A stretch of 40,067 nucleotides of DNA from Candidatus Methylomirabilota bacterium. GTDB taxonomy: Bacteria > Methylomirabilota > Methylomirabilia > Methylomirabilales > 2-02-FULL-66-22. The position numbers and the translations under genes are program-made. Under the pieces are notes generated by a model. It saw only the letters and a list, made by a program, of their open reading frames with translations, was not told the DNA's origin and did no database searches. Location: NCBI GenBank assembly GCA_016180655.1, contig JACPAT010000026.1, positions 1-40,067 of the forward strand, written 5' to 3'. Shown here piece by piece: positions 14,215-30,673 of the stretch; the first letter of the stretch is position 1; the number at the start of each line of letters is the position of its first letter.

Positions 14215-14242
14215 CGGGCATCACGCAGAGAGGGGACCACGC

Positions 14243-14632: not shown

Positions 14633-14650
14633 CCGGCGACCCCCTGATGC

Positions 14651-15396: not shown

Positions 15397-15420
15397 TGGC
15401 TGAAGGCTGCCGGAGGCGAG

Positions 15421-18348
15421 ATGGACCGCCGTGATTTCCTGAAGATCCTTGGGGGCAGTGGGGCGGCCGCAGCCCTCTCGGGCTGCGCCCAGCCGGTGGA
15501 GAAGATTCTCCCCTATGTGATCCCGGACGAGGACATCGTCCCGGGCGTAGCCACCTGGTATGCCACGGTGTGCCGCGAGTGTCCGGCCGGCTGCGGGATG
15601 TTGGTTCGGACGCGCGAGGGCCGGGCCGTCAAGGTGGAGGGCAATCCGGCCCACCCCGTGAATGCCGGCGCCCTGTGCGCCCGGGGGCAGGCCTCGCTTC
15701 AGGGCCTCTACAATCCCGACCGAATCCCCCACCCGCTCCGTCGGGATGCCTCCGGCAAGACGCACCCGATGTCGTGGGCAGAGGCCGAGGCGCTGCTGGC
15801 AGAGCGGTTCGCGGCGCTCCGGGCGCGCGGCGCCGGCGACCGGGTGGCCTTCGTCGGCCGGCTCGAGACGGGAAGCCTGCGCCGGCTGGTCGGGGAATTC
15901 CTCGCGGCGATCGGATCAATGCAGTATCTGACCTACGAGCCCTTCGCCTACGAACCGCTCCGGGCGGCCAACCACATCGCCTTCGGCCGCGCGGCCATCC
16001 CCTTCTACGATATCGAGGCCGCGGAGTTCCTGCTCTCCTTCGATGCGGACTTCCTTGAGACATGGATCTCGCCGGTCGCATTCGCGCGGGCCTTCGCCCG
16101 CTTCCGGACCGTCCGCGAGGGGACGCGCCCGGGATTCGCGTACGTGGGCCCTCGCTTGAACCTGACCGCCGCGAACGCGGATGCGTGGTTGCCCATCCGT
16201 CCCGGGACAGAGGGGATCCTGGCCCTCGGGATGATTCAGGTGATCCTCCAAGAGAAACTGGTCCCGGTCTCGGGACCGGAGCGAGATCGCGTGTGGACGC
16301 TGGTGCAGGGGTATGATCCGCCGGCGGTGGCCAAAGCCACGGACCTTCCCGCGGAGACGGTGCAGCAATTGGCGCGGGCCTTTGTCCTTCCACGGCCAAG
16401 CCTGGCGCTGGGCGGAGGGATCGCCGCGAGCGCGAATAATGCCACCGCCACCCTGGTGGCCATCAATACTCTGAACGCCATCGTGGGGAATCTCGGCCGG
16501 ACGGTCCGCTTCGGCCCCAATGCGAGCATCGCGGAGGCCAGCCCGTATGCCGACCTCCAGCGGCTGATCCAGGCGATGGCCCAAGGGGACGTGGAGGTCC
16601 TGCTCCTGCACGACGTGAACCCACTCTTCACGCTCCCAGCGGCGACGGGATTCGCCGAGGCGCTGGCCAAGGTCCCCCTGGTGGTCAGCTTCTCCAGTTT
16701 CCCCGACGAGACGACGATGCGGGCCCATCTCGTCCTTCCCGATCACACGCCGCTGGAGTCGTGGGGCGATTACGCGCCGCGAGCGGGTGTCGCCGGCCTG
16801 GTGCAACCGACGATGCGGCCCGTCTTCGCCAGCAAGGGCCTTGGGGATGTCCTCCTGGCGGTGGCCCGCCAGATGGGGGGGGAGGTCGCGAAGGCGTTGC
16901 CGGCCGAGAGCTTCCAGGCCTATCTCCAAGAGGTCTGGCGGGGCCATCACCGGCGCTTGGCGCCGACGATCCCCTTCGAGGAGTTCTGGGAGGCAGCCCT
17001 CAAGCGGGGCGGGGTGTGGGAAGAGGTGCCGGACGAGCGGGTGCGGCTCACACTTGGGGGCATCGCAGCCGTGGAGCCGGAGGTGGCGGGATCAAGCGAG
17101 GGGCTCACCCTGCTTACGGTCCCCTCGTTGCAGCACTTTGATGGGCGCGGGGCCAATCGTCCCTGGCTGCAGGAGCTGCCCGATCCGCTGAGCCAGATCG
17201 TCTGGGATGCCTGGGTCGAGATCCACCCCGAGACCGCCCGGCAGCGGGGGATCGGCGAGGGCGACATCGTCCGGTTGACCTCGCCCTTCGGGCAGATCGA
17301 GCTGCCGGCGCATCTTTCGGCCGGCCTGCGAAAAGATGTGGTCGCAGTTCCGATCGGGCAGGGGCATACGGCCTTCGGCCGGTACGCGGAGCGGCGCGGG
17401 GCGAATCCGCTCCTCCTCCTGGCGCCCCGGGCCGAGGAGGCCTCCGGCGCGCTGCCGCGGCTCTCCGTGCGGGTCGCGCTGGCCCGGACGGGCGCGCGAT
17501 CCCTGCTGGCCAGCCCCGCGGGGTCCTCCCAACAGGTCGGGGAGGGCGTTGCCCGGACGATCACTCTCACGGAGCTGAACCGGTCGGAGGCCGAGCCGGG
17601 TCCGCGCCACGAAGCCGGCAGCCTCTACCCTGCCCACGTCCACCCTGACCATCGCTGGGGCATGGCCATTGACCTGAACGCCTGCATCGGGTGCAGCGCC
17701 TGCGTCGTGGCCTGCGCGGCCGAGAACAACGTCCCGGTGGTGGGCAAGGAGCGCGTGAGCCAGGGGCGGATCATGTCGTGGATCCGGATCGAGCGGTACC
17801 TCGAGGAGGGGCCTTCCTTCCCCCGGCCGCGCTTCGTCCCCATGCTGTGCCAGCACTGCGACAATGCGCCGTGCGAGTCGGTCTGCCCGGTCTTTGCCAC
17901 ATACCACAACCCCGAGGGGTTGAACGCCATGGTCTACAACCGCTGCGTGGGGACGCGCTACTGCGCCAACAACTGTCCCTACAAGGTCCGGCGCTTCAAT
18001 TGGCAGACCTACCCCTGGCCATCCCCGCTCCACCTCCAGCTCAACCCGGACGTGTCGGTGCGGGAGATGGGGGTGATGGAGAAGTGCACCTTCTGCGTCC
18101 AGCGTATCCGGGAGGCCAAGGAGAACGCCAAGGACGAGGGCCGGGGCGTCCGCGACGGGGAGATCACCCCCGCCTGCGCCCAGACCTGTCCCACGTCGGC
18201 GATCGTGTTCGGCGACCTCAAAGACCCGCAGAGCCGGGTGGTCCGCCTCGCCCGGGATCCGCGCGGGTATCATGTCCTCGGCGAGCTGAACACCCGTCCG
18301 GCCATTACCTATCTGAAACGCGTCGTCCTGGGCCGGAGTCCCATCTGA
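15421..18348 (+). CDS. actB: Alternative complex III subunit ActB (molybdopterin-oxidoreductase-like domain fused to polyferredoxin)
   Basis: Tat signal DRRDFLK with lipobox LSGC; GRAVKVEGNP, NRPWLQELPDP; FeS motifs CIGCSACVVAC, CQHCDNAPCESVC, CVGTRYCANNC, CTFC...CAQTC. Confidence 0.95.
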   Translation: MDRRDFLKILGGSGAAAALSGCAQPVEKILPYVIPDEDIVPGVATWYATVCRECPAGCGMLVRTREGRAVKVEGNPAHPVNAGALCARGQASLQGLYNPDRIPHPLRRDASGKTHPMSWAEAEALLAERFAALRARGAGDRVAFVGRLETGSLRRLVGEFLAAIGSMQYLTYEPFAYEPLRAANHIAFGRAAIPFYDIEAAEFLLSFDADFLETWISPVAFARAFARFRTVREGTRPGFAYVGPRLNLTAANADAWLPIRPGTEGILALGMIQVILQEKLVPVSGPERDRVWTLVQGYDPPAVAKATDLPAETVQQLARAFVLPRPSLALGGGIAASANNATATLVAINTLNAIVGNLGRTVRFGPNASIAEASPYADLQRLIQAMAQGDVEVLLLHDVNPLFTLPAATGFAEALAKVPLVVSFSSFPDETTMRAHLVLPDHTPLESWGDYAPRAGVAGLVQPTMRPVFASKGLGDVLLAVARQMGGEVAKALPAESFQAYLQEVWRGHHRRLAPTIPFEEFWEAALKRGGVWEEVPDERVRLTLGGIAAVEPEVAGSSEGLTLLTVPSLQHFDGRGANRPWLQELPDPLSQIVWDAWVEIHPETARQRGIGEGDIVRLTSPFGQIELPAHLSAGLRKDVVAVPIGQGHTAFGRYAERRGANPLLLLAPRAEEASGALPRLSVRVALARTGARSLLASPAGSSQQVGEGVARTITLTELNRSEAEPGPRHEAGSLYPAHVHPDHRWGMAIDLNACIGCSACVVACAAENNVPVVGKERVSQGRIMSWIRIERYLEEGPSFPRPRFVPMLCQHCDNAPCESVCPVFATYHNPEGLNAMVYNRCVGTRYCANNCPYKVRRFNWQTYPWPSPLHLQLNPDVSVREMGVMEKCTFCVQRIREAKENAKDEGRGVRDGEITPACAQTCPTSAIVFGDLKDPQSRVVRLARDPRGYHVLGELNTRPAITYLKRVVLGRSPI

Positions 18349-18361
18349 GAAGCGACCCGCC

Positions 18362-19669
18362 ATGCAGCCTCTGACCTTCCGCCAAGTGGATCGTGACATC
18401 CTGCGGACCATGGAGCCGCCGGGGCGGCTCTACTATGGCCTGCTCGCCCTGGTCCTGGCTGTCATCCTCTGGGGCGTGTACGCCTGGTGGTACCAGATCC
18501 AGACCGGCTTGGCGGTCGCGGGCCTCAACAACCCCGTCGGCTGGGGCGCCTACATCACCAACTTTGTCTTCTGGGTGGGGATCGCCCACTCGGGAACGCT
18601 GATTTCGGCCATCCTGTACCTCTTTCGGGCGCGCTGGCGGACCGCGGTCTACCGCAGCGCCGAGGCCATGACGGTCTTCGCCATCATGACGGCGGGCCTG
18701 TTTCCCCTGATCCATCTGGGCCGGCCCTGGTACTTCTACTGGTTGCTGCCCTATCCCAACCAGCGGAACCTCTGGCCCAATTTCCAGTCGCCCCTCCTCT
18801 GGGACGTCGTCGCCATCGGCACCTACATGACGGTGAGCGTGACGTTCTTCTTTATTGGGCTCATCCCGGACCTGGCCACGGCGAGGGACCAGGCCACCGG
18901 CTGGCGCCGCCTCTTCTACGGCATCCTCTCGCTGGGATGGCGCGGCTCGGACCGGGAATGGCGGCACTACCGGAGCGGCTACTTGTTCTTCGCCGCCCTG
19001 GCCACCCCGCTGGTCGTCTCGGTTCACAGCGTCGTGTCGTGGGATTTCGCCATGTCCATCGTCCCCGGATGGCACAGCACCATCTTCGCCCCCTATTTCG
19101 TCGCCGGGGCGATCCACTCCGGCCTGGCCATGGTCATCACCATCCTCCTCCCGCTCCGCCGGATCTTCCGGCTGGAGGCCTACCTGCTTCCGCGCCACTT
19201 CGAGAACCTGGCCAAGCTGATCATCGTCACCGGCCTCATTGTCGGGTATGCCTACCTGGTGGAGTTCTTCCTGGCCTGGTACAGCGGCAATGTCTACGAG
19301 CATGCGGTCTTCCTGGATCGGGCCACCGGCCACTACGCCCCCGAGTTCTGGATCATGGTGACCTTCAACGCGGTGCTCCCGTTGCTCTTTTTCATCCGCA
19401 GGGTCCGGACGAGCCCCGCGTGGCTCGTCGGCATCTCTCTCGGGATCACTATCGGCATGTGGTTCGAGCGGTTCGTCATCATCGTGGCCTCGCTGGCCCA
19501 TTCCTACATCCCCTTCTCGTGGGGCCTGTACCGCCCCACCTGGGTGGAGCTCTCCATCACCGCGGGCAGCTTCGCCTGGTTCCTGTTCTGGTTCCTGCTC
19601 TTCGCGAAGTTCCTCCCCTCGGTCTCGATGACCGAGGTGAAGGAACAGATCCCGGAGGAGGCAGGATGA
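18362..19669 (+). CDS. actC: Alternative complex III quinol-binding subunit ActC (NrfD family)
   Basis: ITNFVFWVGIAHSGTLISAIL, RSAEAMT, IHLGRPW, SPLLWD, SVHSVVSWDF, GWHSTIF, GMWFERFVII. Confidence 0.95.
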   Translation: MQPLTFRQVDRDILRTMEPPGRLYYGLLALVLAVILWGVYAWWYQIQTGLAVAGLNNPVGWGAYITNFVFWVGIAHSGTLISAILYLFRARWRTAVYRSAEAMTVFAIMTAGLFPLIHLGRPWYFYWLLPYPNQRNLWPNFQSPLLWDVVAIGTYMTVSVTFFFIGLIPDLATARDQATGWRRLFYGILSLGWRGSDREWRHYRSGYLFFAALATPLVVSVHSVVSWDFAMSIVPGWHSTIFAPYFVAGAIHSGLAMVITILLPLRRIFRLEAYLLPRHFENLAKLIIVTGLIVGYAYLVEFFLAWYSGNVYEHAVFLDRATGHYAPEFWIMVTFNAVLPLLFFIRRVRTSPAWLVGISLGITIGMWFERFVIIVASLAHSYIPFSWGLYRPTWVELSITAGSFAWFLFWFLLFAKFLPSVSMTEVKEQIPEEAG

Positions 19670-20169
19670 TCCGGCCCGGCCTCGTGGGGATCTTCGCCGA
19701 CGGAGCGCAGGCCGCCCGGGCGATCGCCGCCCTCCGGCGCGAAGGTTTCGAGGGCTTCGAGGTCTATGGACCGGTCCCGCACCCGGCCGTCGAGGCGGCC
19801 CTGGAGGCGGGCGTGAGCCCGGTGCGACGGTATACCCTGGCGGGGGGCATCCTCGGCTGCGCGAGCGGATTCGCCCTCACGATCTGGACGGCGCTCCAGT
19901 GGAACCTGGTCGTGAGCGGCAAGCCCGTGGTGGCCCTCGTCCCCTTCGTGGTGATCGCCTTCGAGCTCACGGTCCTGTTCGGGGCGCTCGCCACGCTGCT
20001 GGGCGTCCTCGTCCACGCCCGGTTGCCGCGCCTTCGGCCGGAGGTCGGGCAGGATCCGCGTTTCACCGGGGATCGGTTCGGGATCCTGGTGTGGTGCGAG
20101 GGGGATCGCGCCGCGGCGGCCGAGGTGGGGCTCCGCCGGGCGGGGGCCGAGGAAGTGCGAAGTGTCTAG
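19666..20169 (+). CDS. actD: Alternative complex III subunit ActD (DUF3341)
   Basis: ATGA overlap with actC; EVYGPVP, WNLVVSGKP, FVVIAFELTVLFGA, DPRFTGDRFGI, GAEEV. Confidence 0.9.
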   Translation: MIRPGLVGIFADGAQAARAIAALRREGFEGFEVYGPVPHPAVEAALEAGVSPVRRYTLAGGILGCASGFALTIWTALQWNLVVSGKPVVALVPFVVIAFELTVLFGALATLLGVLVHARLPRLRPEVGQDPRFTGDRFGILVWCEGDRAAAAEVGLRRAGAEEVRSV

Positions 20170-20728
20170 AGATTCACTGCAACCGCAGATGAACGCAAAT
20201 AAACGCAAATTCAAATTTGAGGAATCAATTTGCGTGGATTTGCGTTTATTGGCGGTTTCGTTTGGTTTGGTCGTCGCGCTCTGGTGGGTGCCGTCGGCGT
20301 CCAGCATGCCCTGGAGCCAGGACATGGTCCGGCAGCCGTCGGTGAGGCCGCAGCAGGAACCGCGGCCGGCAGCCCCGGGGGCGCTGCCGACCACCGCGCC
20401 ACGCCGGACAGGATCTCGGGGAGAGGCCAGGGAGATCCTGCGGAATCCGGTGGAGGCCTCCCCGGCTTCGGTGGAACGGGGCCTCAAGCTCTACCGGATC
20501 CACTGTGCCGCCTGCCATGGTCCAGGAGGCCAGGGGGATGGCCCGGTGGTGGCGAGATTCCTCAAGCCGCCCTCGCTGACCTCGGAGCGGGCGAAGAAGT
20601 ACCCGGATGGGTTCCTGTACGGGACGATCCGCCACGGCGGGCCCAAGATGCCGAGTTACCGGGAGGGCCTGAGCGACCGGGAGCGGTGGGACGTGGTCAA
20701 CTACCTGCGGAGCTTGCAGGGGCGATGA
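20162..20728 (+). CDS. actE: Alternative complex III monoheme cytochrome c subunit ActE
   Basis: DMVRQPS, NPV..S..RG.KLYRIHCAACHG..GQGDG, MPSY, RWDVVNYLRSLQ; N-terminus contains a translated repeat; start uncertain (GTG 20162 or ATG 20189). Confidence 0.85.
   Translation: MSRDSLQPQMNANKRKFKFEESICVDLRLLAVSFGLVVALWWVPSASSMPWSQDMVRQPSVRPQQEPRPAAPGALPTTAPRRTGSRGEAREILRNPVEASPASVERGLKLYRIHCAACHGPGGQGDGPVVARFLKPPSLTSERAKKYPDGFLYGTIRHGGPKMPSYREGLSDRERWDVVNYLRSLQGR
20178..20257. repeat. CAGATGAACG-type palindromic repeat, copy 3, inside the actE 5' end
   Basis: TGCAACCGCAGATGAACGCAAATAAACGCAAAT...ATTTGCGTGGATTTGCGTTTATTGGCGGTT; AT-rich island in a GC-rich operon. Confidence 0.8.
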
Positions 20729-21975
20729 GCGCGACCGAGTTTCATCCCGTCCCTATCTCGGCCCTCACCCGCCCGCTGCCGCGCTGGATCATCACCGGGC
20801 TGGGTCTGCTGGTGTTGGTGGGAGCGGGGACGTTCCTGCTGGGGGCCAGCGGGCGGAATCCGCTCCGGGCCTGGCAGGCCTACCTGGTCAACTTCCTCTT
20901 CTGGTCCGGGATCGGCCAGGCCGGCCTGGTCTTCGCCAGCATCCAGGAGATGACCGGGGCGCGGTGGGGCCACCCCATTCGGCGGATCGCAGAGGCGATG
21001 GCGGCGTTCCTGCCCATCTCGTTCCTGCTCTTCCTTGCCCTGTTCTTCGGCCGGGGAACCATCTTCCCCTGGGTCCGGAACCCGATCCCCCAGAAGCAAG
21101 CCTGGCTCAACGTCCCCTTCCTCTTCACGCGGGACGCCGTCGCGTTGCTCTTGCTGGGGGGCCTGAGCGTCCTCTTCCTCTACTTCACCCTGCGGCCCGA
21201 CGCGCAGGCTGCGGAAGCAGTGGGCCCCCGCTGGGCATGGCCCCTGTATGTCCTCCTCCGGAGGGGCTGGCGCGGGCGCACAGCGGAGCTGGATCGGAGC
21301 CGGCGAACTCTGGCGATCCTGTCGCCCATCCTGGCGATCCTGTATTGCCTGGGCCTCACCCTGATCGCCTTCGACCTCGTGATGTCCCTGGACCCCGGCT
21401 GGTCCAGCACCCTCTTCGGCGCCTACTTCTTCATCGGCAACCTCTACGTCGGCCTGGCCTGCCTCGCCCTCCTGGCCGCGGCGGCCCGCCGCCTGTTCCG
21501 GCTGGAGGCCCTGATCACCTCGGCACAGTTCCACGACCTCGGGAAGCTGCTCTTCGCGTTCTGCATGCTCAGTGGGGACTTCTTCTGGTCACAGTTCCTG
21601 GTCGTCTGGTACGGGAACCTTCCCGAGGAGACGGGCTTCATCCTCGTCCGCGCACGGCAACTGCCGTGGGCGCCGATCTCCTGGATCGTGCTGCTGGTGT
21701 GTTTCCTGGGCGCCTTTCTCGTCCTGCTCAGTCGGCGGCTCAAAGAGCATCCGGCCGGGCTCTCCGCCGTGGCCACCTGCATTCTCCTCGGCATGTGGCT
21801 GGAGCGGTTCCTGCTGGTGGTCCCTTCGGTCTGGCGTGGGTCGAGTCTGCCCCTCGGCCTGCCCGAGCTCCTCATCACCGGGGGATTCGCCGGCCTGTTC
21901 CTCCTGGCCCTCCTGGCCTTCGGCCGGGCCTTTCCCTTCCTGCCAGCGGTGACCGGGTTTGAGAACCCCTCCTGA
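20725..21975 (+). CDS. actF: Alternative complex III membrane subunit ActF
   Basis: ATGA overlap with actE; RAWQAYLVNF, WLNVPF, DLVMSLDPGWSSTLFG, HDLGKLLFAF, SQFLVVWYGNLPEET. Confidence 0.92.
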   Translation: MSATEFHPVPISALTRPLPRWIITGLGLLVLVGAGTFLLGASGRNPLRAWQAYLVNFLFWSGIGQAGLVFASIQEMTGARWGHPIRRIAEAMAAFLPISFLLFLALFFGRGTIFPWVRNPIPQKQAWLNVPFLFTRDAVALLLLGGLSVLFLYFTLRPDAQAAEAVGPRWAWPLYVLLRRGWRGRTAELDRSRRTLAILSPILAILYCLGLTLIAFDLVMSLDPGWSSTLFGAYFFIGNLYVGLACLALLAAAARRLFRLEALITSAQFHDLGKLLFAFCMLSGDFFWSQFLVVWYGNLPEETGFILVRARQLPWAPISWIVLLVCFLGAFLVLLSRRLKEHPAGLSAVATCILLGMWLERFLLVVPSVWRGSSLPLGLPELLITGGFAGLFLLALLAFGRAFPFLPAVTGFENPS

Positions 21976-22188
21976 CCGTCGGCGAATGCCGTGCGCGGCC
22001 GGTTTTCCCGCTCTCGGGCGTTGCGCGCATATTCCCGCAGCAACCGGTGCGGCAGACCAGTGTCATTGTCGTTACTGTCCCCCCGTTCCTCTTTGTGTAG
22101 TGTCGACCACCGAGCGGAGACGGCGACTGGCGCACCCTTCCTGCCGGAGAGACCCCCGGCCGGTTGGGGTGCGCCACTGGTGGGCTCG

Positions 22189-24894
22189 ATGGCTTCTCTC
22201 TTGCGGGCAATCACCTGCTCCGGGTGGGTGACACCATCATGGCTCCTGTGCATCATCCCCTGGCTCCAACTTTCTGGCGGTCTCCTGGCCTTCCTGCTCA
22301 TCGCCCTCTTCGGCACCATCCATAGCGAGCTCGGCCACCAGATCTCCGCGGGGGAGAGTCCGGCCCTGGCGTGGGCTAGGATCCATGTCGCCGGAGTCCT
22401 TGGGGGTGGCCTCGCATATCTCGCCGTGGCCTCGGCGCTGCAGGCCCTGGCCCTGCGGCAGGCTGGCCGTCCCGCGGCCCGAGGAATGAACCTCCTGGCG
22501 GCAATGGAACTGGTGGCGGTGGCGTCACTGGGCCTGGCGTTTCTGCGCCAGTGGGATGGCGTGGTCCCCTGGGGGCACACCCTGCTTCAACTCTCCTTGC
22601 TGCTACAGGCCCTCGTGCTCCTCTGCCGCTCGGGGCCCCATGAGATCACCTTCCCCGCGGGCCTGCGCGGAGGGGGCCACGGCCTGTTCCTCACGTTGGT
22701 CTTCCTGCTGGCCGCAGTCCCGGGGTACCTGGATCCCTCCTGGCACCGGCTGCGTGAGCACGTGCAGCTCGATTCCGGGCGGGACATCTTTTGGAGTCGC
22801 GTCCTGCCCATGCTGTTCTCCGGGGTGACTGGCCTGTGGCTCGGCAGCGGGGTCCTGGCAATCCTGGCCGGGTGCCGGCGTCTCGCGATGAGGCCGGGCA
22901 TCTCGCCACGGGCGGCGGGGACGATCTCGTTCCTGCCGTTCCTCTCCATCGCGGTCCTCTTCGGGGCGGTGGGGCTGCTCCCTCTGTTTCAGTCCATGGA
23001 GTGGGAGCTCGGCGCCCTCCGGCTCGGGGGCGCCGTGCCGCCACTTTTCCTCCTCCTTTCCGGAGGTGGCGGAGCCTTGTGTTGGCTGGCCTTTCGCCGG
23101 TTGGTGCCGCACGCACCTGGGGCCCGGGGAGAGCTCGTCATCGGCATGGCGGCGCTGGCGATGGGAGGAATGCTGCTTCTGCCGATCACGTGGCTTCTCA
23201 TCCGCCCGGGCTCCGGCTGGCGCTCCCGGCGGTGGCTCCAGGTGTTCTCTCTGCTGGGGAGCCTCGGCCTGGCATACGTCGTCTTGTACGGGAACCTCTT
23301 CGATCCCTGGTTCACCGTCTTCTCCTACCTGAAAGGGGGGATCCTGAAGTTCGTGGCCGTGGTGGTGGCGGGGATCCTGACCATGCTGATCAGGGAGAGC
23401 CAGACCAACGGAACGCGTCCGTCAGAGGCGAAGACCAGGTGGATGCCCGTCGCCGCCGCGTGCCTGGCGGGGGTTATCCCGTTCGCGGCCCTGGAGAGAG
23501 GCCGGGATACCAAGGTCGCCGTTTTGCAGTTCAACGAGCTCAGCATGGTGGACGCCACCTATGCAAGGCTGGCAGCCAGGGTCCTGGGCCTGGAAGGCTG
23601 GATTCGCCTGGGGCAGAACCCCGCGCCCAGGGGTCGGCCGGAACCCTGGCCCCACCCCTGGTCCCTGCAGAGGAACGGCCTCTTGCGCCTCCCACGGGAC
23701 TTCAATCTCCTGGTGATCGTGGTGGACGCCCTGCGGGGGGATGCTTTTGGCTCGGCAGGGTACCATCGGGACCTCACCCCTTTCCTGGACCGGTGGGCCC
23801 GGGAGGAAGCCGTGTCCTTCCGACGGGCCTACAGCCAGGGAGGGGGAACCTTCGCCGCGTATCCCTTCCTGGTCGGCGGCCGGAGCCGGTTCACTCTGTA
23901 TGGGGCTGAGCTCCACCGGGAGAATCTCTACTTCAAGCTTTCCCAGGCCGAGGGGATCCGGCACGTCATGGTGGTCAAGGAGTTCGGGCCCAGGGAAATC
24001 TTCCCTCCCGATTTCCCCGTCATCGAACTGGGCGGTCCGGGTGCGCGTGCCGCCGGGCGGTCTGTTCCGGCGGAGACGGTCTTCGGCCGGGTCCGCGAGG
24101 CCATCGGCGCGCTCTCCAAAGGGGAGAGGTTCTTCGCCTTCCTCCACCTGATGGATGTGCACAGTGTGCTGTGGAAGAAGCCGGAGTGCGTGGACTTCGG
24201 CGACACGCCGAGGGACCTGTACGACAACAACCTGGCCTGTCTGGACAAGGCCTTGGAACGTTTCGTGACCTGGCTCAAAGCGCAGGGAATCTATCAGCGA
24301 ACCGTCATCGTCTTCACTGCGGATCATGGTGAGCAGTTCTGGGAGCACGGGGCCAGTTTGCACGGCCACACCCTGTACGAGGAAGAGATCCACATCCCCC
24401 TGATCCTCCTGGCTCACGGCGTGCGCGGGCGGGTGGAGGACGTGCCGGTGCTGGCGGCGGATATGGCGCCTACCGTGGCGGAGCTGGCGGGCTACTCGGT
24501 CCGCCCTCCCTACGACGATCCCCGAATGGGAATCTCCCTCGTCCCGCTCCTGCTGGGGGAGGAGAGGGAAAGGTATCGGAAGCGGGATGTTGTAGGACGG
24601 GCCTCCTTCAAACGGCGGTACTTCCTCTACCGGGACTGGGAGTGGAAGCTGGTCTATTCCGCCGACTTCGATCTCTTACAGCTCTTCAATACGGCCCGGG
24701 ACCCGTGGGAGAGGAGGAATCTCCTCCGGGAGGAACCGACTCTGGCGGCGGAACTGGAACGGGAGCTCCTGGGATACCTGGAGAGGATCGAGGGGAAGTC
24801 CTACCGGCCCCTGCTTTCCCAGGCGACGAACGGGGGCGGGCTATCGGGCAGGGCACAGCGGCAGCCCCGGTTCGCGGGCGTCCGGGAGCGATGA
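22189..24894 (+). CDS. Polytopic membrane protein with C-terminal sulfatase-like (alkaline phosphatase superfamily) domain
   Basis: Many N-terminal hydrophobic helices; IVVDALRGD, AYSQGGGT (Thr at the nucleophile position), HLMDVH, TADHGE, HGHTLYEEEIHIPL; start uncertain (ORF open from 21991). Confidence 0.8.
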   Translation: MASLLRAITCSGWVTPSWLLCIIPWLQLSGGLLAFLLIALFGTIHSELGHQISAGESPALAWARIHVAGVLGGGLAYLAVASALQALALRQAGRPAARGMNLLAAMELVAVASLGLAFLRQWDGVVPWGHTLLQLSLLLQALVLLCRSGPHEITFPAGLRGGGHGLFLTLVFLLAAVPGYLDPSWHRLREHVQLDSGRDIFWSRVLPMLFSGVTGLWLGSGVLAILAGCRRLAMRPGISPRAAGTISFLPFLSIAVLFGAVGLLPLFQSMEWELGALRLGGAVPPLFLLLSGGGGALCWLAFRRLVPHAPGARGELVIGMAALAMGGMLLLPITWLLIRPGSGWRSRRWLQVFSLLGSLGLAYVVLYGNLFDPWFTVFSYLKGGILKFVAVVVAGILTMLIRESQTNGTRPSEAKTRWMPVAAACLAGVIPFAALERGRDTKVAVLQFNELSMVDATYARLAARVLGLEGWIRLGQNPAPRGRPEPWPHPWSLQRNGLLRLPRDFNLLVIVVDALRGDAFGSAGYHRDLTPFLDRWAREEAVSFRRAYSQGGGTFAAYPFLVGGRSRFTLYGAELHRENLYFKLSQAEGIRHVMVVKEFGPREIFPPDFPVIELGGPGARAAGRSVPAETVFGRVREAIGALSKGERFFAFLHLMDVHSVLWKKPECVDFGDTPRDLYDNNLACLDKALERFVTWLKAQGIYQRTVIVFTADHGEQFWEHGASLHGHTLYEEEIHIPLILLAHGVRGRVEDVPVLAADMAPTVAELAGYSVRPPYDDPRMGISLVPLLLGEERERYRKRDVVGRASFKRRYFLYRDWEWKLVYSADFDLLQLFNTARDPWERRNLLREEPTLAAELERELLGYLERIEGKSYRPLLSQATNGGGLSGRAQRQPRFAGVRER

Positions 24895-25865
24895 AGGAGC
24901 TTCCCATGCGTGGCCGGTGGCAGGCGATGGGGGGCCTGGTTCTGCTCCTGGCGGGGTGCGCCGGGACCGCAGGGATGGAGGGCGTGGTGGCCCTCATCCC
25001 CACGGGACAGTGGCCGGAGGATGTGGTCTTCGACGCGGAGACCCAGACCATCTTCGTCGCCGACGAGGGCAGCGCCACGGTCACGGCCATTGACGCCGGG
25101 AGCCGCACGGTCCGCGGGACGATTCGCCTCCAGACCCGCGCGCGGCACCTCGCCGTTGCGGCTGGACGACTCTACGCGCCGAATGAACACAGCCAGTTCG
25201 TCGGGGTCTATGATGCCAGGACCCTGGGCGAGATCGGCCGCTTGGCCGTGGGAGGACAGCCGCACGGCCTGGCGGTGGACGCCTCGCGAGGACGGCTCCT
25301 GGTGGGCAACGAGGAGGACGGGACGGCGACCCTGGTGGACACGACGACGCTCCGGCCGATCGCCGTGATCCCCGTCGGCCGGGGGCCGGGAGGCGTGACC
25401 GCCGATGTCGGAAGCGGCCGGGGGTTTGTGGTCAGCGTGAAGGAGGACCGGGTGACCGCGGTGGACCTCACCACAGGAACCATCCTGGGAAGCCTGCCCG
25501 TCGGGGCCGGGCCCACGCATCTCCGGGCCAATTCCCGGACGGGGCTGGTGTACGTCTGCAACACGGAGGCGGACAGCCTCACCGTCCTGGATGGTCGGGC
25601 GCTCGCGGTCCGGGCCACCATCCCGGTGGGCCGCTATCCGTTTCCCATCACGATTGAGGAGGCGCGCGGGCGTGCCTTCGTGGTGAACAGCCGGGACGCA
25701 ACGCTCTCCGTGATCGCGGAGGAGAGTCTCCGGGTGATGGAGACCCGCCCCATCCCCCGCAATGTCTCCAGCTTGGCCGTGGATCCCGCCCGCGGGGTTC
25801 TGTACCTTGCCCTGAAGAGCGACAATCGCCTGGCCATCCTTCCCGCGCCAGGGACTCGACCCTAG
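24891..25865 (+). CDS. YncE/YVTN-type beta-propeller lipoprotein
   Basis: Lipobox LLAGC; ~7 repeats of I/VPVGxxPxxxxV...YVxN; ATGA overlap with the upstream gene (alternative start ATG 24906). Confidence 0.85.
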   Translation: MKELPMRGRWQAMGGLVLLLAGCAGTAGMEGVVALIPTGQWPEDVVFDAETQTIFVADEGSATVTAIDAGSRTVRGTIRLQTRARHLAVAAGRLYAPNEHSQFVGVYDARTLGEIGRLAVGGQPHGLAVDASRGRLLVGNEEDGTATLVDTTTLRPIAVIPVGRGPGGVTADVGSGRGFVVSVKEDRVTAVDLTTGTILGSLPVGAGPTHLRANSRTGLVYVCNTEADSLTVLDGRALAVRATIPVGRYPFPITIEEARGRAFVVNSRDATLSVIAEESLRVMETRPIPRNVSSLAVDPARGVLYLALKSDNRLAILPAPGTRP

Positions 25866-25944
25866 CCCGAGGCGGGCTCCATCACCCAATGCCAGCCAGC
25901 GCCCGTCCGATGGTTGGAGAGTTCGGACAGGCCGGACAGGAGGC

Positions 25945-25974
25945 TTGACGGAGGCCGGGCGAACGCGATACCCT
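25945..25974 (+). promoter_or_regulatory. Putative sigma70 promoter of the microprotein/ATPase operon
   Basis: TTGACG-N18-TACCCT about 50 nt upstream of ATG 26023. Confidence 0.5.
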
Positions 25975-26022
25975 CCACCCCGGTAGCAGAGCGTCCACCG
26001 TGCGCTTGGAGGGATACCCACC

Positions 26023-26301
26023 ATGGGTGACGAAGAGAAGCGCGGCATTTTCGGCTCGCTGAAGGACAAGTTCAAGGACTACATCTACGGCATGGCGGCG
26101 CACGAGATGACCCGCCAGGCCCTGAAGACCCGCGGGAGCATGGAGCACCTCTTCATCCTCATCACCATGGGCGACCTCTTGGGGGTGCCCATCCTGCCGC
26201 CGTACTACTCCCTGCGGCTGCTCCCCTACGTGGTGCCGCAGATCTCCACGTGGAAGCGGCGCATGCTCCGCGAAAAGGACCTGACCGACGCCTTGGCCTA
26301 G
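26023..26301 (+). CDS. ArsA/Get3-associated small membrane protein, paralog A
   Basis: SD GGAGG; hydrophobic hairpin LFILITMGDLLGVPILPPYYSLRLLPYVVP; strong paralog at 29453-29728. Confidence 0.88.
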   Translation: MGDEEKRGIFGSLKDKFKDYIYGMAAHEMTRQALKTRGSMEHLFILITMGDLLGVPILPPYYSLRLLPYVVPQISTWKRRMLREKDLTDALA

Positions 26302-26353
26302 CGCCTGACCGGCAGCGCATCCCTCTCGATCCTTCCGACGGAAAGGACCAGGC

Positions 26354-27340
26354 ATGAACGGGGGACTCGGCCGCATCTTCAAGGAGCACCCGGACCGACG
26401 CTACATCATGTTCGGCGGCAAGGGCGGCCTGGGCAAGACGACCTTTTCGGCCGCCACGGCCTACTACCTGGCCCAGCAGGGACACCGGGTCCTGGTCTTC
26501 TCCGTGGACCCCCAGGCCTCCCTCTCGGACATCTTCCAGCGGGACATCTTCGGCAAGGGCCCCGTGGAGATCCTGCCCAACCTTTACGCGCAGGAGATCG
26601 ACGCCGACAAGCGCATCAAGGCCTACCAGGAGGAGATCCGCAAGAAGATCTTCGACATGTACGGCTTCGACAAGATCCCCGACGAGATCGAGAGCTACAT
26701 CCAGGCCGCCGCGGCCGAGCCGGCCATGGAGGAGAGCGCCATCTTCGACGAGGTGGTGGACATCGTGGTTGCCGGGAACTACGACTATTACATCTACGAT
26801 CTGGTGCCGCTGGGCCACGCCCTCTACTACCTCTCCATGGCCAGCGTCTACGACGAGTGGATCGAGCGGATCACCAAGCTCCGCGAGGACATGCGCCAGT
26901 ACGAGGAGATGGCCGCCGCCATCGGCAAGGACAAGGAGCTGGAAGAGGACATGATCCTCAAGGAGCTCCAGTACATCAAGCACCGGATCAGCACCTCCTC
27001 CGGCATCCTCACGGACCGGGAGAAGACCGCCTTCTTCTTCGTGATCATCCCCGAGGAGATGATCCTCATAGACACCCAGAAGGCGGCCCAGCTCTTCGCC
27101 AAGTTCAACGTGCCACTCAGCGGGTATGTCGTCAACCGCGTCATCCCCGAGAGCCTGGCGAGCCAGGACATCCCCGAGTACCTGCGCAACCGGCTCCAGA
27201 TGCAGAAGGGCTACCTGAAGAAGATCCAGGAGCTGTTCGGAAACGAGGTGCTGGCCCAGGTCCCGGAGTTCGAGCGCGACATCACCGGCCTTCCCATGAT
27301 CCAGAAGATGGCCGAGGCCATGTTCGGGACGGGCCGCTGA
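26354..27340 (+). CDS. ArsA/Get3(TRC40)-family ATPase, subunit 1
   Basis: Deviant Walker A GKGGLGKTT, switch I SVDPQASLSD, altered switch II DLVPLGH, VVNRV; no cysteine in the protein. Confidence 0.93.
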   Translation: MNGGLGRIFKEHPDRRYIMFGGKGGLGKTTFSAATAYYLAQQGHRVLVFSVDPQASLSDIFQRDIFGKGPVEILPNLYAQEIDADKRIKAYQEEIRKKIFDMYGFDKIPDEIESYIQAAAAEPAMEESAIFDEVVDIVVAGNYDYYIYDLVPLGHALYYLSMASVYDEWIERITKLREDMRQYEEMAAAIGKDKELEEDMILKELQYIKHRISTSSGILTDREKTAFFFVIIPEEMILIDTQKAAQLFAKFNVPLSGYVVNRVIPESLASQDIPEYLRNRLQMQKGYLKKIQELFGNEVLAQVPEFERDITGLPMIQKMAEAMFGTGR

Positions 27341-27373
27341 GGCCCCCGCACCTTCGCCCGGGAGTGTGATCCC

Positions 27374-28378
27374 ATGACTCAGCAGACAGGGCTGCATCCG
27401 CTGGTCCAGGAGAACATGCGAGGCTTCCTGGAGAAGCATCCGCACCTGAAGTACAACTTCTTCGGCGGAAAGGGCGGCGTGGGCAAGACAGTGCTAGCCG
27501 GCGCTTCGGCCCTGGCCTTCGCCCGACTGGGGAAGCGGACCCTGCTGGCCTCCACCAACCCGGTTCACAGCCTCAGCGGCCTCTTGAGCCAGAACGTCTT
27601 CGGGCAGGTGGTCCAGGTGACCGGGGTGCCGAACCTTTTTGCGTACGAGATCGATACCAAGGATACCATCGAGAAGTCCAAGCAGGAGATCAAGGAGAAG
27701 GTGAGCTGGTTCCTCAAGTTCGCCGAGATCCGGACGCAGGCGGACGCCTTCGTCGAGTCGGCCACCATGAACCCGGCCTTCGAGGAATCGGCCATGTTCG
27801 AGAACATGATTGACATCATGTTCAAGGACGAGTACGAGGTCTACGTCTTCGACACCGCCCCCACCGCCAACGCCCGCCGCCTGCTGGGCATGTCCTCGGT
27901 CTACTCTCTCTGGGTCGGCAAGATGATGAAGAGCCGGGAGGAGGCCCAGTCCCTCCGGCAGGTCCTCTCCTACAGCAAGAAGAAGGAGGAGAAGGACCCG
28001 CTCATGGACTACCTCCTCTCTTTCCAGCAGCGCATGGCCCACGCCAAGGAGCTGCTCACCGACGCCCAGAAGACGGCCTTCTTCTTCGTGACGCTCCCGG
28101 AGGCGCTGCCGATCGCGGTGATCACGCGCTTCATCGCCTGGTTCAAGGAGTTCGGGATTCCCGTGGGCGGCGTCGTGGTCAACATGCTGATCGACAAGGC
28201 CCAGGTGCGCGCCGACTCACCCGAGTTCGTGCGCAACCGCGTGGCCATGCAGGAAGCCTACATGGAAGAGATCAAGTCGGACTTCCCGGGGATGGTGCGC
28301 GCCGTCCTGCCCCTCTTCGAGACCGAAATCCGGGGCGTGGAGATGCTCAAGCGGACGGCCGATGCCCTCTATTGCTAG
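27374..28378 (+). CDS. ArsA/Get3(TRC40)-family ATPase, subunit 2 (switch I Asp to Asn)
   Basis: GKGGVGKTV, STNPVHSLS, DTAPTAN, VTLPE, VVVNM; the only Cys is the terminal residue. Confidence 0.93.
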   Translation: MTQQTGLHPLVQENMRGFLEKHPHLKYNFFGGKGGVGKTVLAGASALAFARLGKRTLLASTNPVHSLSGLLSQNVFGQVVQVTGVPNLFAYEIDTKDTIEKSKQEIKEKVSWFLKFAEIRTQADAFVESATMNPAFEESAMFENMIDIMFKDEYEVYVFDTAPTANARRLLGMSSVYSLWVGKMMKSREEAQSLRQVLSYSKKKEEKDPLMDYLLSFQQRMAHAKELLTDAQKTAFFFVTLPEALPIAVITRFIAWFKEFGIPVGGVVVNMLIDKAQVRADSPEFVRNRVAMQEAYMEEIKSDFPGMVRAVLPLFETEIRGVEMLKRTADALYC

Positions 28379-28452
28379 CCGTCAACCGCCAGCTCAGGCA
28401 CGACGAGCGGCCCCGTGTGGGCCGCTCGTTTTTTCAGTGAACCGCCGAGTGG

Positions 28453-28572
28453 TCATGTAACGAGTTGCACCACGATGGATGAAGACCCGGGCACATTGCC
28501 CAGGTTCAGGCGCCCCCACCCCACCCCTCCCCCCAGCGCGGGGGAGGGGTGGGCGGGGGGGATTTTCGTGAC
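28453..28572. repeat. GC-rich hairpin/repeat element between convergent genes
   Basis: CCCCACCCCACCCCTCCCCC-AGCGC-GGGGAGGGGTGGGCGGGGG hairpin (about 28513-28560) flanked by TCAT...GATGAA and ATTTTCGTGA. Confidence 0.5.
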
Positions 28573-28618
28573 AGGCGCCAGGAACGCCAAGGAAGGCTGG
28601 GTCGAGGGGCGTCAAAGA

Positions 28619-29287
28619 TCAGCGCCCGGGTCCGCGGGGCAGGACGGTCTGGGCGAGCTGTGACAGGGTGGCGAAGATCGGGAGGGGGGTTCGGGTCTCG
28701 GTCGCCGGGACCGGAAGACTGAGGATCAGGTGCGGGGCCTCGAGTTGCAGGCCGACGCGCCAGACATCCATCCCCCCGATGGCGCTCATGACCGCCCGCG
28801 CCAGCGCTCGCCCGTCGGCGTCCGGGCCGGCGCAGAGCAGGGGCGGCCGCCCGGCCAGCGGCTCCTCACGCCAGCCCTTTTCCCGGATGTCATGAGCGAC
28901 CTGGGTCGCGCCGCGCCTCCTGGGGTGGTACACCTCGAAGCTGGCGCCGACGCGGCCGTTCAGGGTCACGCCGATCACCAGCCAGTCGCGTCGTCCACCC
29001 AGCCGGCCAAAGGCCCAGAGGAAGAAGGTCTCCCGGGGCTCCAGCAGGACGCTGATGCCCAGCCGGACGAAGGGGGGCGTCAGTTGCTCCGCCTCGATCC
29101 GGAAGGCGCTCCGCCCGATCCAGCGGATGGTGGCGGTCCCGCCGAAGGGCTGGATGGAGTCGCGCACCTGCCGCACCAGCGTCACGGCCCGCCGGCGGTT
29201 GACCTGGATCCCCGCGACGTACCACATCAGCAGGAAAGCTGCGAGGCCGATGGCCAGGTCGGTGCCGGTGAGTCCGCGATCGAACAT
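28619..29287 (-). CDS. N-terminally membrane-anchored protein with CCDC47/DUF1682-like motifs
   Basis: Single N-terminal TM (LAIGLAAFLLMWYVAG) followed by YxxGxxxNxRxA and R-x15-DxxxIxVTLN motifs; family call made from memory. Confidence 0.7.
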   Translation of the reverse strand: MFDRGLTGTDLAIGLAAFLLMWYVAGIQVNRRRAVTLVRQVRDSIQPFGGTATIRWIGRSAFRIEAEQLTPPFVRLGISVLLEPRETFFLWAFGRLGGRRDWLVIGVTLNGRVGASFEVYHPRRRGATQVAHDIREKGWREEPLAGRPPLLCAGPDADGRALARAVMSAIGGMDVWRVGLQLEAPHLILSLPVPATETRTPLPIFATLSQLAQTVLPRGPGR

Positions 29288-29308
29288 CAGCGTGGGTCCC
29301 CTATGAAT

Positions 29309-29447
29309 TGGGGGTCAGGGGCCAGGGGCTGGGGATCAAGGGTCAGGGAAACGACACGAGGCAGCGCCAGGTGCCTACCGGCGTCAAATCCGCAATCGGA
29401 AACCCTCCGGGTGATCGAACATCCGCAATCCGAAATCCGAAATTCCG
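29309..29447. repeat. Two heptamer tandem runs (GGGTCAG-type and AATCCGC/AATCCGA-type)
   Basis: GGGGTCA GGGGCCA GGGGCTG GGGATCA AGGGTCA (about 29311-29346); AATCCGC AATCGGA ... CATCCGC AATCCGA AATCCGA AAT (about 29387-29444). Confidence 0.65.
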
Positions 29448-29452
29448 GTGGG

Positions 29453-29728
29453 TCATCCGGCGCCCGCGAGGTCGGTGAGGTCCTTTTCCCGCAGCATCCG
29501 GCGCTTCCAGTTGCTGACGGCGGGGACGATGTACGGGAGAAGCCGGAGGGTGTAATAGGGCGGGATCACCGGGACGCCGACGATGTCGCCGAACACGATG
29601 AGCACGAAGAGATGTTCCAGATCCCCGCGCTGCTTCCGGAACATCACGACGGCATCATGCAGGGCCATGCCGAAGAGGAAGCCGCGGAACCACTCCCGCC
29701 AGCCCCCCAGCCACTCCCTGAAGCTCAT
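29453..29728 (-). CDS. ArsA/Get3-associated small membrane protein, paralog B
   Basis: Shares EHLF.L...GD..GVP..PPYY.LRLLPY.VP....WKRRMLREKDLTD with 26023-26301; SD GAGGAAGGA. Confidence 0.88.
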   Translation of the reverse strand: MSFREWLGGWREWFRGFLFGMALHDAVVMFRKQRGDLEHLFVLIVFGDIVGVPVIPPYYTLRLLPYIVPAVSNWKRRMLREKDLTDLAGAG

Positions 29729-29767
29729 CGCCCGTTATCCTTCCTCACTCGCGGCAACCCCACGAGG

Positions 29768-29796
29768 AGTATCCTCTCCTTCTTTGGACAAATCAA
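29768..29796 (-). promoter_or_regulatory. Putative sigma70 promoter for paralog B and the CCDC47-like gene
   Basis: TTGATT-N17-GATACT on the minus strand, 40 nt upstream of ATG 29728. Confidence 0.45.
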
Positions 29797-29839
29797 GCGC
29801 CTCCACTCGGCTCTCGGCTCGCGACTCTCAACTCTTCCG

Positions 29840-30673
29840 TCATCCCTTGACCGCCCCGAAGGTGAGGCCGGTCACGATGTGCCGCTGCACGATCAGCGTG
29901 AGGATGATGACCGGCAGGGTGATCATCGTGGCGGCGGCGGCCAGGGGCCCCCAATTGATCTCCTCGTAGCCGATCATGTTGAAGACGGCGATGGGCAGGG
30001 TCCGGGTGTTCCGGCCGGCCAGGATCACCGAGAACAGGAAGTTGTTCCAGGAGAAGATGAAGCTCAGGATGGAGGTCGCCACGATCCCCGGCTTCACCAG
30101 GGGCACCGCCACCCGCCAGAAGGCCCCGTAGTGGGAGCAGCCGTCAATCAGCGCCGCGTCCTTCAGCTCCGGCGGGATGTCCTCGAAGAACCCGATCATG
30201 ACCCAGATGATGATGGGCAGGCCCACCACCAGGTGGGTGAGGATGAGCGCCTGGTAGGTGTCCACCATGCGGAGGTTCCGGAACAGGATGTACCAGGGGA
30301 TCAAGTAGCTGATCCCGGGGATGATGCGGGCGACCAGCATGGTGAGGGCCAGGCCGCGCTGCCGCCAGTGGGCGATGCTGTAGGCCGCCGGCAGCCCGAC
30401 CGCCAGGCCCAGTACCGTGCATCCCACGGCCACGACCAGGCTGTTCCAGGTGTAGAGCAGGAACGGATGCTTGGCGAAGACCTCCTGGTACCCCTTGAAG
30501 GTGACGGAGAAGCGGAAGAAGCTCGGGGGGTATCCCGCCGCCTCCACCTGCGGCTTCAGGGAGAGGGTGATCATCCAGTAGAAGACGAAGACCGTGGGCA
30601 GCATGACGGCGATCACCAGGGCGTAGAACCCCGCCGTCCGGAGCCAGTTCCGCAGCCTTTTCCCGGTCACCAT
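29840..30673 (-). CDS. Carbohydrate ABC transporter (CUT1) permease, MalG-type
   Basis: WNSLVVA, AAYSIA, EAA loop ELKDAALIDGC, FIFSWNNF, TLPIA, QRHIVTGLTFGAVKG. Confidence 0.93.
   Translation of the reverse strand: MVTGKRLRNWLRTAGFYALVIAVMLPTVFVFYWMITLSLKPQVEAAGYPPSFFRFSVTFKGYQEVFAKHPFLLYTWNSLVVAVGCTVLGLAVGLPAAYSIAHWRQRGLALTMLVARIIPGISYLIPWYILFRNLRMVDTYQALILTHLVVGLPIIIWVMIGFFEDIPPELKDAALIDGCSHYGAFWRVAVPLVKPGIVATSILSFIFSWNNFLFSVILAGRNTRTLPIAVFNMIGYEEINWGPLAAAATMITLPVIILTLIVQRHIVTGLTFGAVKG

Follow-up and report, generated by a model that had tools for sequence, protein, structure and literature searches.

Gene content of the locus

We analysed a stretch of 40,067 nucleotides (hereafter the window; contig JACPAT010000026.1 of assembly GCA_016180655.1, from a Candidatus Methylomirabilota (NC10) bacterium) with respect to five open reading frames (ORFs) at positions 26023-29728. 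These ORFs formed two convergent units, each opening with one of two paralogous proteins of about 90 aa. Unit 1 comprised small protein A, ATPase 1 and ATPase 2, and unit 2 comprised small protein B and a protein of 222 aa (Table 1). Very probably, the five genes represent the cstX/arsA-like/arsA-like unit and the cstX/cstY unit of the CstA-associated cluster described by Castillo and Saier in 2010, detached here from the carrier gene cstA. As the cluster was described in that work, the system as such is not new. New are the fixed Asp/Asn asymmetry of the two ATPases, the CstY-like proteins of bacteria and their CCDC47-like predicted fold, as well as a distinct CstX paralogue paired with CstY and the detachment from cstA in NC10.

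An initial annotation, made from the sequence of the window, had described two convergent units tied together by their small proteins. This layout was found again in full, with small proteins A and B being 57% identical over 83 aa (E 7e-39). All five ORFs started with ATG preceded by a purine-rich stretch. Spacings were 52 and 33 bp within unit 1, 165 bp within unit 2 and 240 bp between the convergent ends. The 240-bp spacer contained a strong hairpin just 3' of ATPase 2, while shuffled sequences averaged 2.0 sites. The putative promoter that had been assigned to each unit did not reappear, as a sigma-70 consensus scan of positions 25700-30000 returned no promoter site.

Table 1. Features of the locus (positions in the window)
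Feature	Position	Strand	Length	Remarks
Small protein A (CstX-like, Pfam DUF7990/PF25952)	26023..26301	+	92 aa	
ATPase 1, single-domain Get3/ArsA fold	26354..27340	+	328 aa	SVDPQASL, variant switch II DLVPLGH
ATPase 2, paralogous Get3/ArsA fold	27374..28378	+	334 aa	STNPVHSL, switch II DTAPTAN
Terminator-like hairpin closing unit 1	28402..28430	+		12 pairs, 9 G-C, then T run; consensus match
N-anchored protein (CstY-like)	28619..29287	-	222 aa	predicted transmembrane helix, NRRR and long helix, cytoplasmic alpha/beta domain
Small protein B (CstX-like, DUF7990)	29453..29728	-	91 aa	faster-evolving paralogue paired with the 222-aa protein

Conservation of the module and its linkage to cstA

Relatives of the locus were collected by scanning one genome per species with the small protein as the only seed. 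At least 599 stretches were obtained, from which 80 loci were kept. They belonged to Methylomirabilota, Chloroflexota, Desulfobacterota-type groups, Actinomycetota, Bacillota, Nitrospinota and Leptospirales, that is, to at least seven phylum-level groups. The order small protein-ATPase 1-ATPase 2 was present in 64 of the 80 loci, and in 64 the small-protein gene was located directly upstream of ATPase 1. Since the small protein alone had served as seed, this shared arrangement goes far beyond chance. The 16 loci without both ATPases were mostly short contigs or had been found through the second paralogue. At least two small-protein genes were present in 52 loci, and six of the 80 had three. 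A homologue of the 222-aa protein was present in 31 loci (NC10 6/10, Chloroflexota 24/48, Actinomycetota 1/2, Desulfobacterota 0/16), and in 20 of these 31 a small-protein gene lay within 400 bp of it. The neighbourhood comparison thus upheld the earlier proposal that the genes constitute one conserved system.

In 57 of the 80 loci, a gene for a CstA-family carrier was located directly upstream of the module and in the same orientation (tblastn). This was observed in all the phyla named above, including one NC10 locus. We arrived at cstA through an over-long DUF7990 gene call fused to a CstA tail (Pfam) and then through clustering of the neighbours in loci outside Chloroflexota. The upstream carrier matched PF02554, and its best NCBIfam model was NF011590, pyruvate/proton symporter CstA, with 187 bits, under the equivalog cut-off. 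In 29 of the 80 loci, members of one CxxC thioredoxin-like family were encoded between cstA and the small-protein genes (e.g. L049:5274-5660); their only Pfam matches were weak ones to DUF1525 and Thioredoxin_3. Such CxxC proteins beside the module recall, by analogy, ArsD beside ArsA. In the genome under study, cstA was found on another contig, C315, where thioredoxin-like CxxC proteins of about 127 aa follow it (284-985, minus strand; one whole copy and one partial copy at the contig end).

The cstA-cstX-arsA-like(-cstY) cluster was described from SEED neighbourhoods (Castillo and Saier, Int J Microbiol 2010, PMC2963123; statements on this paper refer to the parts of it that were covered). 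An ArsA homologue accompanied CstA in 26 cases, and 24 of these also had CstX, a protein of about 90 aa with a single transmembrane segment (TMS). Two CstX paralogues were present in two organisms, and adjacent pairs of ArsA homologues, 25-31% identical, were also reported for two organisms. CstY, of about 210 aa and with a single TMS, was given for five archaea only. The ArsA homologues had about 330 aa and a single domain, the operons were without arsR, and CstX was never found without CstA. Trees of CstA, CstX and the ArsA homologues were parallel. It was proposed that the ATPase energises CstA, that CstX serves as a linker and that CstY is a non-essential auxiliary. Our literature searches returned no other paper on this module, and none later on CstX, CstY, DUF7990 or prokaryotic CCDC47. 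In a 2019 Traffic review, which presents bacterial Get3 homologues as common, and in a 2023 paper on Get3d, the function of these homologues is given as unknown, and the cluster is not mentioned in the parts of the two texts that were covered.

As for expression, contigs from RNA libraries (four libraries, three studies) covered relatives of small protein A, ATPase 1 and ATPase 2, and one contig of 3579 nt spanned all three genes of a relative. This is a weak hint, given that the contigs derive from relatives, that DNA carry-over is possible and that they prove neither transcription nor a single transcript. The 222-aa gene was almost not covered and small protein B only little, which says nothing about expression of unit 2.

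Predicted properties of the encoded proteins

ATPase 1 and ATPase 2 were 35% identical over 317 aa. Both matched Pfam ArsA_ATPase with one domain each (E 1e-72 and 6e-65) and scored above the cut-off of TIGR00345 (GET3_arsA_TRC40). Their nearest solved relatives were archaeal Get3 proteins, namely 3ug6 (E 1.4e-62 for ATPase 1 and 4.9e-51 for ATPase 2) and 3zq6; structures of ArsA and eukaryotic Get3 were more distant, and Rv3679 (BagA) was a marginal match (E 4.6e-7). The alignment with Get3 of M. jannaschii ran through the TRC40 insert, i.e. the helical client-binding region, with a gap of four residues only, and methionine was mildly enriched over this region in ATPase 2. The orthologues of ATPase 1 (67 sequences including that of the window) had a median identity of 75% to the protein of the window, those of ATPase 2 (64 sequences) one of 71%. 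The deviant Walker A motif (P-loop) read GGKGGLGKT in 67/67 sequences of ATPase 1 and GGKGGVGKT in 64/64 of ATPase 2. In switch I, the Asp of SVDPQASL was kept in all 67 sequences of ATPase 1, and ATPase 2 had Asn in its place (STNPVHSL) in all 64. The switch II variants listed in Table 1 were present in 67/67 and 63/64 sequences, respectively. We take the switch I Asp to be the catalytic residue of Get3. As this residue is always Asn in ATPase 2, ATPase 2 is probably the non-hydrolysing half of a heterodimer, and the pair probably has a single active site.

The initial annotation had noted that the ATPases lack internal Cys, which was confirmed: ATPase 1 has none, and the only Cys of ATPase 2 is its last residue. 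Moreover, no conserved Cys column was present in the 67 orthologues of ATPase 1 or the 64 of ATPase 2, and the position of the CxxC zinc bridge of Get3 was taken by P-[ED]-[YF]-[LV]-x-N-R in both families. From the sequences, the simplest reading would be an obligate heterodimer with one hydrolytic and one ATP-sensing site, joined without zinc. Prediction of a complex of ATPase 1, ATPase 2, small protein A and two ATP gave scores of 0.22 and 0.15 (mark 0.32), which speak neither for nor against binding. The same genome encodes a third Get3 homologue (contig C310, 2399-6372, minus strand) of 314 aa, with canonical DPAHS, DTAPTGH and CLFC motifs. Its gene sits between those of a 201-aa Hsp20/alpha-crystallin protein and a 726-aa Cdc48/VCP-like double-AAA ATPase, a neighbourhood of proteostasis type. 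Because this canonical homologue is present, the ATPase pair appears to be a specialised offshoot and not the only Get3 of the cell.

The small proteins belong to PF25952, named DUF7990 by the Atlas, with 1553 clusters at 90% identity (all listed ones with PF25952) and 448 clusters at 50% identity. Across phyla, 26 columns were invariant. An N-terminal amphipathic part was followed by E-H-L-F-x-L-I-x-x-G-D-x-x-G-x-P, a PPYY turn, R-L-L-P-Y-x-x-P and a charged tail, W-K-R-R-M-L-R-E-K-D-L-T-D. Although they had been called hydrophobic microproteins in the initial annotation, this description proved borderline. Each has one marginal stretch, whose best 19-residue hydropathy (A, 1.59; B, 2.05) reaches or slightly exceeds the usual transmembrane (TM) threshold, and the stretch contains an invariant Asp and several Pro. 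The small protein may be read as a short hairpin with both ends cytoplasmic, which would dip into the membrane or sit in the groove of the ATPases and would not be a classical tail anchor. NF041419 (cory-CC-star), the only curated model that matched the small proteins even faintly, scored them with 35 and 39.8 bits against an equivalog cut-off of 80, and the C-terminal Cys-Cys of cory-CC-star is missing from the proteins of the window. This model also gave a signal in the Haloferax volcanii control, a genome which also contains CstA and ArsA-family genes. The signal, for which no locus was seen, is a hint in line with the CstX reported from archaea in 2010.

A quick tree (careful search unfinished, SH-aLRT support only) split the small proteins into a slowly evolving type, which includes small protein A and always directly precedes ATPase 1, and faster types. 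Small protein B fell in a group of eight NC10 rows, six of them beside a 222-aa gene. These eight rows nested in a group of 19 (14 beside a 222-aa gene) which included Anaerolineae rows (SH-aLRT 94). In the same tree, NC10 small proteins of the A type nested among Anaerolineae rows, and the ATPases were 70-80% identical between phyla; this might indicate either extreme constraint or movement of the module between phyla. One protein, P0241, was a tandem fusion of two small proteins (163 aa, two DUF7990 stretches), which suggests that small proteins can act as a pair. The 14 longer DUF7990 proteins examined by Pfam scan contained no informative fusion, those with a CstA tail (P0297) and an ArsA head (P0368) looking like run-on gene calls.

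The 222-aa protein has one N-terminal hydrophobic helix (19-residue hydropathy, KD19, of 2.0), with about seven residues ahead of the TM helix. It matched no Pfam or NCBIfam model, and PF07946 gave no match at E up to 10. A structure was predicted with an alignment of 27 members from NC10 and Chloroflexota (pLDDT 89.9, pTM 0.83). In this model, a helix at residues 8-48 (TM segment, NRRR and juxtamembrane helix) is followed by an alpha/beta domain, and the chain ends with the globular domain. Foldseek returned only three matches below E 0.001, namely 7tm3 chain 4 (4.7e-8), 9i78 chain 4 (5.7e-8) and 6w6l chain 7 (1.2e-4). With VIA-align, Z was 16.9 for 7tm3_4 and 7tut_4 (rmsd 3.6-3.7 Å, 210 of 222 residues aligned), 14.4 for 9i78_4 (4.1 Å, 208 residues) and 10.8 for 6w6l_7 (4.3 Å, 187 residues). 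The next were 6t84, which is TtfA (Z 9.4-9.7, 3.9-4.0 Å, about 150 residues), and type III secretion chaperones (Z up to about 8.5). An independent search of 48,161 representative chains placed the same two entries on top, only three chains reaching Z of at least 8.

Chain 4 of 9i78 was named CCDC47 by the PDB sequence search. It was the sole match of the family profile, not a significant one (E 1.5), over the TM-NRR(K/R) stretch. Chain 4 of 7tm3 and 7tut and chain 7 of 6w6l were taken to be CCDC47 from entry titles, residue ranges and likeness to 9i78_4, the molecule name coming from no tool. In animals and fungi, CCDC47 assists the assembly of membrane proteins, and TtfA is a mycobacterial accessory factor of a membrane transporter. 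PF07946 was the only Pfam family matched by more than one of the 27 members (2/27, best E 0.043), a faint echo, and a language-model search placed a CCDC47 cluster at rank 24 (score 0.79), no more than a lead. The CCDC47-like character that the initial annotation had assigned to this protein thus holds at the level of the predicted architecture, the query itself being a predicted model. Part of the lead of CCDC47 in Z comes from the long helix; when only the globular domain is compared, CCDC47 (10.8) is little ahead of TtfA (9.4-9.7). The luminal N-terminal domain and the C-terminal coiled coil of CCDC47 are missing from the 222-aa protein.

In 20 Chloroflexota loci, another protein recurred near the module, with about 213 aa, N-terminal hydrophobic helices and TPR repeats (e.g. 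L062:8807-9445 and L053:2455-3093). TPR co-chaperones are a feature of eukaryotic tail-anchor pathways. In the window itself, the module was flanked by an alternative-complex-III cluster, a large membrane protein with a sulfatase domain, a beta-propeller protein and ABC/TRAP/TTT transporters. The alternative-complex-III-like cluster (13174-21975) consists of a cytochrome c protein, a 975-aa molybdopterin/FeS protein resembling ActB, an NrfD-like ActC and ActD. In the following 967-aa ORF (21991-25865), numerous hydrophobic stretches at the N-terminus are combined with a sulfatase domain at the C-terminus. About 250 bp are shared with the next ORF, that of the beta-propeller protein, if the latter is taken in its long version, but the propeller probably starts further downstream.

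Possible roles and comparison with known systems

Anatomy and linkage of the module are observed, and all of its mechanism is inferred. We tentatively favour a dedicated assembly or chaperone system for a CstA-CstX(-CstY) carrier complex, as opposed to a general insertion pathway or an arsenite pump. A role in the service of CstA is suggested by the linkage of the module to one carrier gene, by the co-evolution argument of 2010 and by the precedent of TtfA as a transporter factor, while the Get3-type ATPases and the CCDC47-like anchor tilt the balance to an assembly or chaperone cycle. In such a cycle, the two ATPases would form an obligate heterodimer of archaeal Get3 type, with the hydrolytic site in ATPase 1 and a degenerate, ATP-sensing site in ATPase 2. 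When bound to ATP and closed, the dimer would grip with its helical domain the proline-kinked, Asp-containing hydrophobic hairpin of the approximately 90-aa CstX. The membrane-anchored CstY with its CCDC47 fold could act as a docking platform at the cytoplasmic membrane face, and hydrolysis at the single active site would free CstX into or onto the membrane beside the CstA-family carrier. The initial annotation had left the choice between chaperoning or inserting membrane proteins and servicing a specific membrane client. The latter fits best, since CstA is encoded upstream in so many related loci, and the client associated with the module is most likely the CstA carrier; the proposal of a general targeting role was upheld only in part.

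Several observations weigh against this interpretation. The window contains no CstA match, cstA being located elsewhere in the same genome, and five of the ten NC10 loci were likewise without both ATPases or cstA nearby. In line with the link to CstA, all five further genomes in which module genes stood detached or alone (four of NC10, one of Chloroflexota) encoded CstA elsewhere, but it was also detected in 7 of 14 control genomes, so that co-occurrence at the genome level is weak evidence. Equating the proteins of the window with CstX and CstY rests on size, topology and position, which the description in the 2010 paper matches, and our literature searches found no interaction, ATPase activity or transport phenotype reported for the module. 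A homologue of the 222-aa protein was absent from all 16 Desulfobacterota loci, and its family was not found in any of five core-bearing whole genomes (Desulfomonilaceae, Syntrophaceae, Leptospirales, Nitrospinota and Bacillota), these being metagenome-assembled genomes of unknown completeness and the family diverging quickly. Because the core module is kept where this protein is absent, the latter would not be essential to the core mechanism. As for the small proteins, the marginal hydrophobic stretch is followed by a strongly charged tail of 19 residues, unlike in classical tail anchors, and the stand-alone model was poor (pLDDT 57.5), a low-confidence helix-turn-helix.

A close rival, possible though we consider it the less probable of the two, is energy coupling or gating as proposed by Castillo and Saier in the style of ArsA-ArsB. 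Here, the ATPase heterodimer would dock on CstA through the CstX linker and turn it into an ATP-dependent transporter of pyruvate, peptides or another anion, with CstY as a non-essential auxiliary subunit. The same linkage to cstA in 57 of 80 loci and the parallel trees of CstA, CstX and ArsA homologues (PMC2963123) would be expected, and the founding member ArsA does exactly this with ArsB (PMC2963123). One active site together with a sensing site would suit a regulated coupling device; the CxxC thioredoxin-like proteins between cstA and cstX in 29 loci are placed like ArsD; and TtfA, the second-best fold match of CstY, is a transport factor by its PDB title. However, the ATPases are of Get3 type and not of ArsA type, with a single domain, archaeal Get3 as nearest relatives, the insert kept and no ligand-binding Cys. 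Moreover, the module can be detached from cstA, as it is here, which is unusual for stoichiometric pump subunits, and no substrate site can be named. We regard it as unlikely that the module is instead a general GET/PAT-like targeting system or intramembrane chaperone with many clients, independent of CstA, in which the ATPases would correspond to Get3, the 222-aa protein to CCDC47 and the small proteins to Asterix. It would account for the Get3 type of the ATPases, for the CCDC47-like fold with its faint sequence and language-model echoes, for the separation from cstA in this genome and for the pairing of the B-type small protein with the CCDC47-like gene, which resembles that of Asterix with CCDC47 in the PAT complex (PMC13261788, as described in the part covered). 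Nevertheless, the close tie to a single carrier gene (57 of the 80 loci) speaks for a dedicated role, many lineages retain the core but have no CCDC47-like protein, and the canonical Get3 homologue near Hsp20 and the Cdc48-like ATPase is a better candidate for general duties.

Two further explanations were considered. Mycobacterial BagAB consists of two interacting Get3-like ATPases which protect against glycerol and NO stress, and the pair described here might similarly act as a stress-protective holdase or have another cytosolic role. This is quite improbable: the genes for paired Get3-like ATPases do lie side by side and the NCBIfam models BagA and BagB were weakly matched, but with 48 and 36 bits where 400 and 521 are required, Rv3679 was a marginal PDB match (E 4.6e-7), and the strict linkage to DUF7990 and CstA would be left unexplained. 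That bacterial Get3 homologues may be general chaperones is argued in the 2019 Traffic review (in the part covered). An arsenite or antimonite pump ATPase split over two genes is suggested by the Pfam family name and by sub-threshold matches to ArsA equivalogs (101-138 bits), and yet we consider it very improbable, as the cut-offs of 650 and 800 are missed by far and both sets of orthologues (67 and 64 sequences) are without a conserved Cys column. No ars family was detected among 42 large ORFs of the window in a Pfam scan that left out ORFs below 150 aa, such as a possible arsR, in agreement with the initial annotation. In a search of the whole genome, ArsB-like matches were present only on contigs other than that of the window and ArsD was not found, so that neither is encoded on the contig. 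The 2010 paper also noted operons without arsR (PMC2963123). The earlier conclusion that this is not an arsenite pump is thus strengthened by the absence of conserved Cys, the single-domain proteins and the lack of an ars context.

The locus is part of the single subgroup of bacterial and archaeal Get3 proteins with fixed partners, namely CstA, a DUF7990 protein and, in some lineages, an anchor of CCDC47 fold. Owing to these fixed genetic partners, Get3 as an insertion chaperone and Get3 as a transport ATPase become testable alternatives, and the strict Asp/Asn split offers a natural 'trap' heterodimer for mechanistic work. As far as our literature searches reach, the CCDC47-like predicted fold is the first clue from prokaryotes as to how the PAT complex originated, and it is the reason why the locus still merits attention although the system has been known since 2010. 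CstY might even be a true prokaryotic homologue of CCDC47 which, together with the paired DUF7990 protein, forms a PAT-like intramembrane platform cooperating with the Get3-type ATPases, though we hold this to be rather doubtful. If true, GET and the PAT part of the multipass translocon, two biogenesis machineries of the eukaryotic ER which are regarded as distinct, would descend from one prokaryotic module that originally serviced the multi-pass carrier CstA, and CCDC47, TtfA and CstY would belong to a single superfamily of accessory factors that are anchored in the membrane and assist transporters and translocons.

Among known systems, ArsA-ArsB(-ArsD) shares with the module the ATPase superfamily, a secondary carrier as partner and, in many related loci, a small thioredoxin-fold protein. 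However, ArsA is one chain with two domains and three metalloid-binding Cys, whereas two chains without such Cys and a non-homologous carrier are present here; TIGR04291, which has a cut-off of 650, gave the ATPases 101-105 bits. BagAB (Rv3679/Rv3680 of M. tuberculosis) is, like the pair of the window, formed by two adjacent Get3-like ATPases acting as a pair, but it is a remote relative (NCBIfam BagA/BagB 29-48 bits, cut-offs 400 and 521). TtfA (6t84, trehalose monomycolate transport factor A by PDB title) is the second-best fold match of the cytoplasmic domain of the 222-aa protein. However, it scores much lower than CCDC47, shows no signal at the sequence level and belongs with a transporter of another family.

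CCDC47 of the eukaryotic PAT complex and multipass translocon (7tm3, 7tut, 9i78, 6w6l) resembles the predicted 222-aa protein in its TM helix, long juxtamembrane helix and cytosolic alpha/beta domain, and the 222-aa gene adjoins that of a small hydrophobic protein. In contrast to CCDC47, the 222-aa protein has no signal peptide, luminal acidic domain or C-terminal coiled coil and stays below the gathering score of PF07946, and instead of Sec61 and the ribosome it has Get3-type ATPases and a CstA carrier as partners. With archaeal Get3 (M. jannaschii 3ug6/3ug7 and M. thermautotrophicus 3zq6), the ATPases have in common the deviant Walker A motif, the insert region and an end-to-end alignment. 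The archaeal proteins are homodimers or tetramers with DPAHS, DTAPTGH and a CxxC zinc site, whereas the window encodes two diverged paralogues without CxxC, one of them also without the catalytic Asp.

The closest counterpart is the CstA cluster of 2010, from which the locus differs in three respects, as far as the covered parts of that paper go: i) cstA is not adjacent in the window, whereas in the paper CstX was never found without CstA, ii) CstY was archaeal only, whereas the matching protein was present here in NC10, Chloroflexota and one actinobacterial locus, and iii) neither the Asp-to-Asn asymmetry nor a CCDC47-like fold was reported. The two resemble each other in the single-domain ArsA homologues of 328 and 334 aa encoded as an adjacent pair, a duplicated partner of about 90 aa, no arsR among the large ORFs scanned and, in 57 of the 80 relatives of the locus, linkage to cstA; the 222-aa protein with its one predicted TM helix would be the candidate counterpart of the approximately 210-aa CstY.

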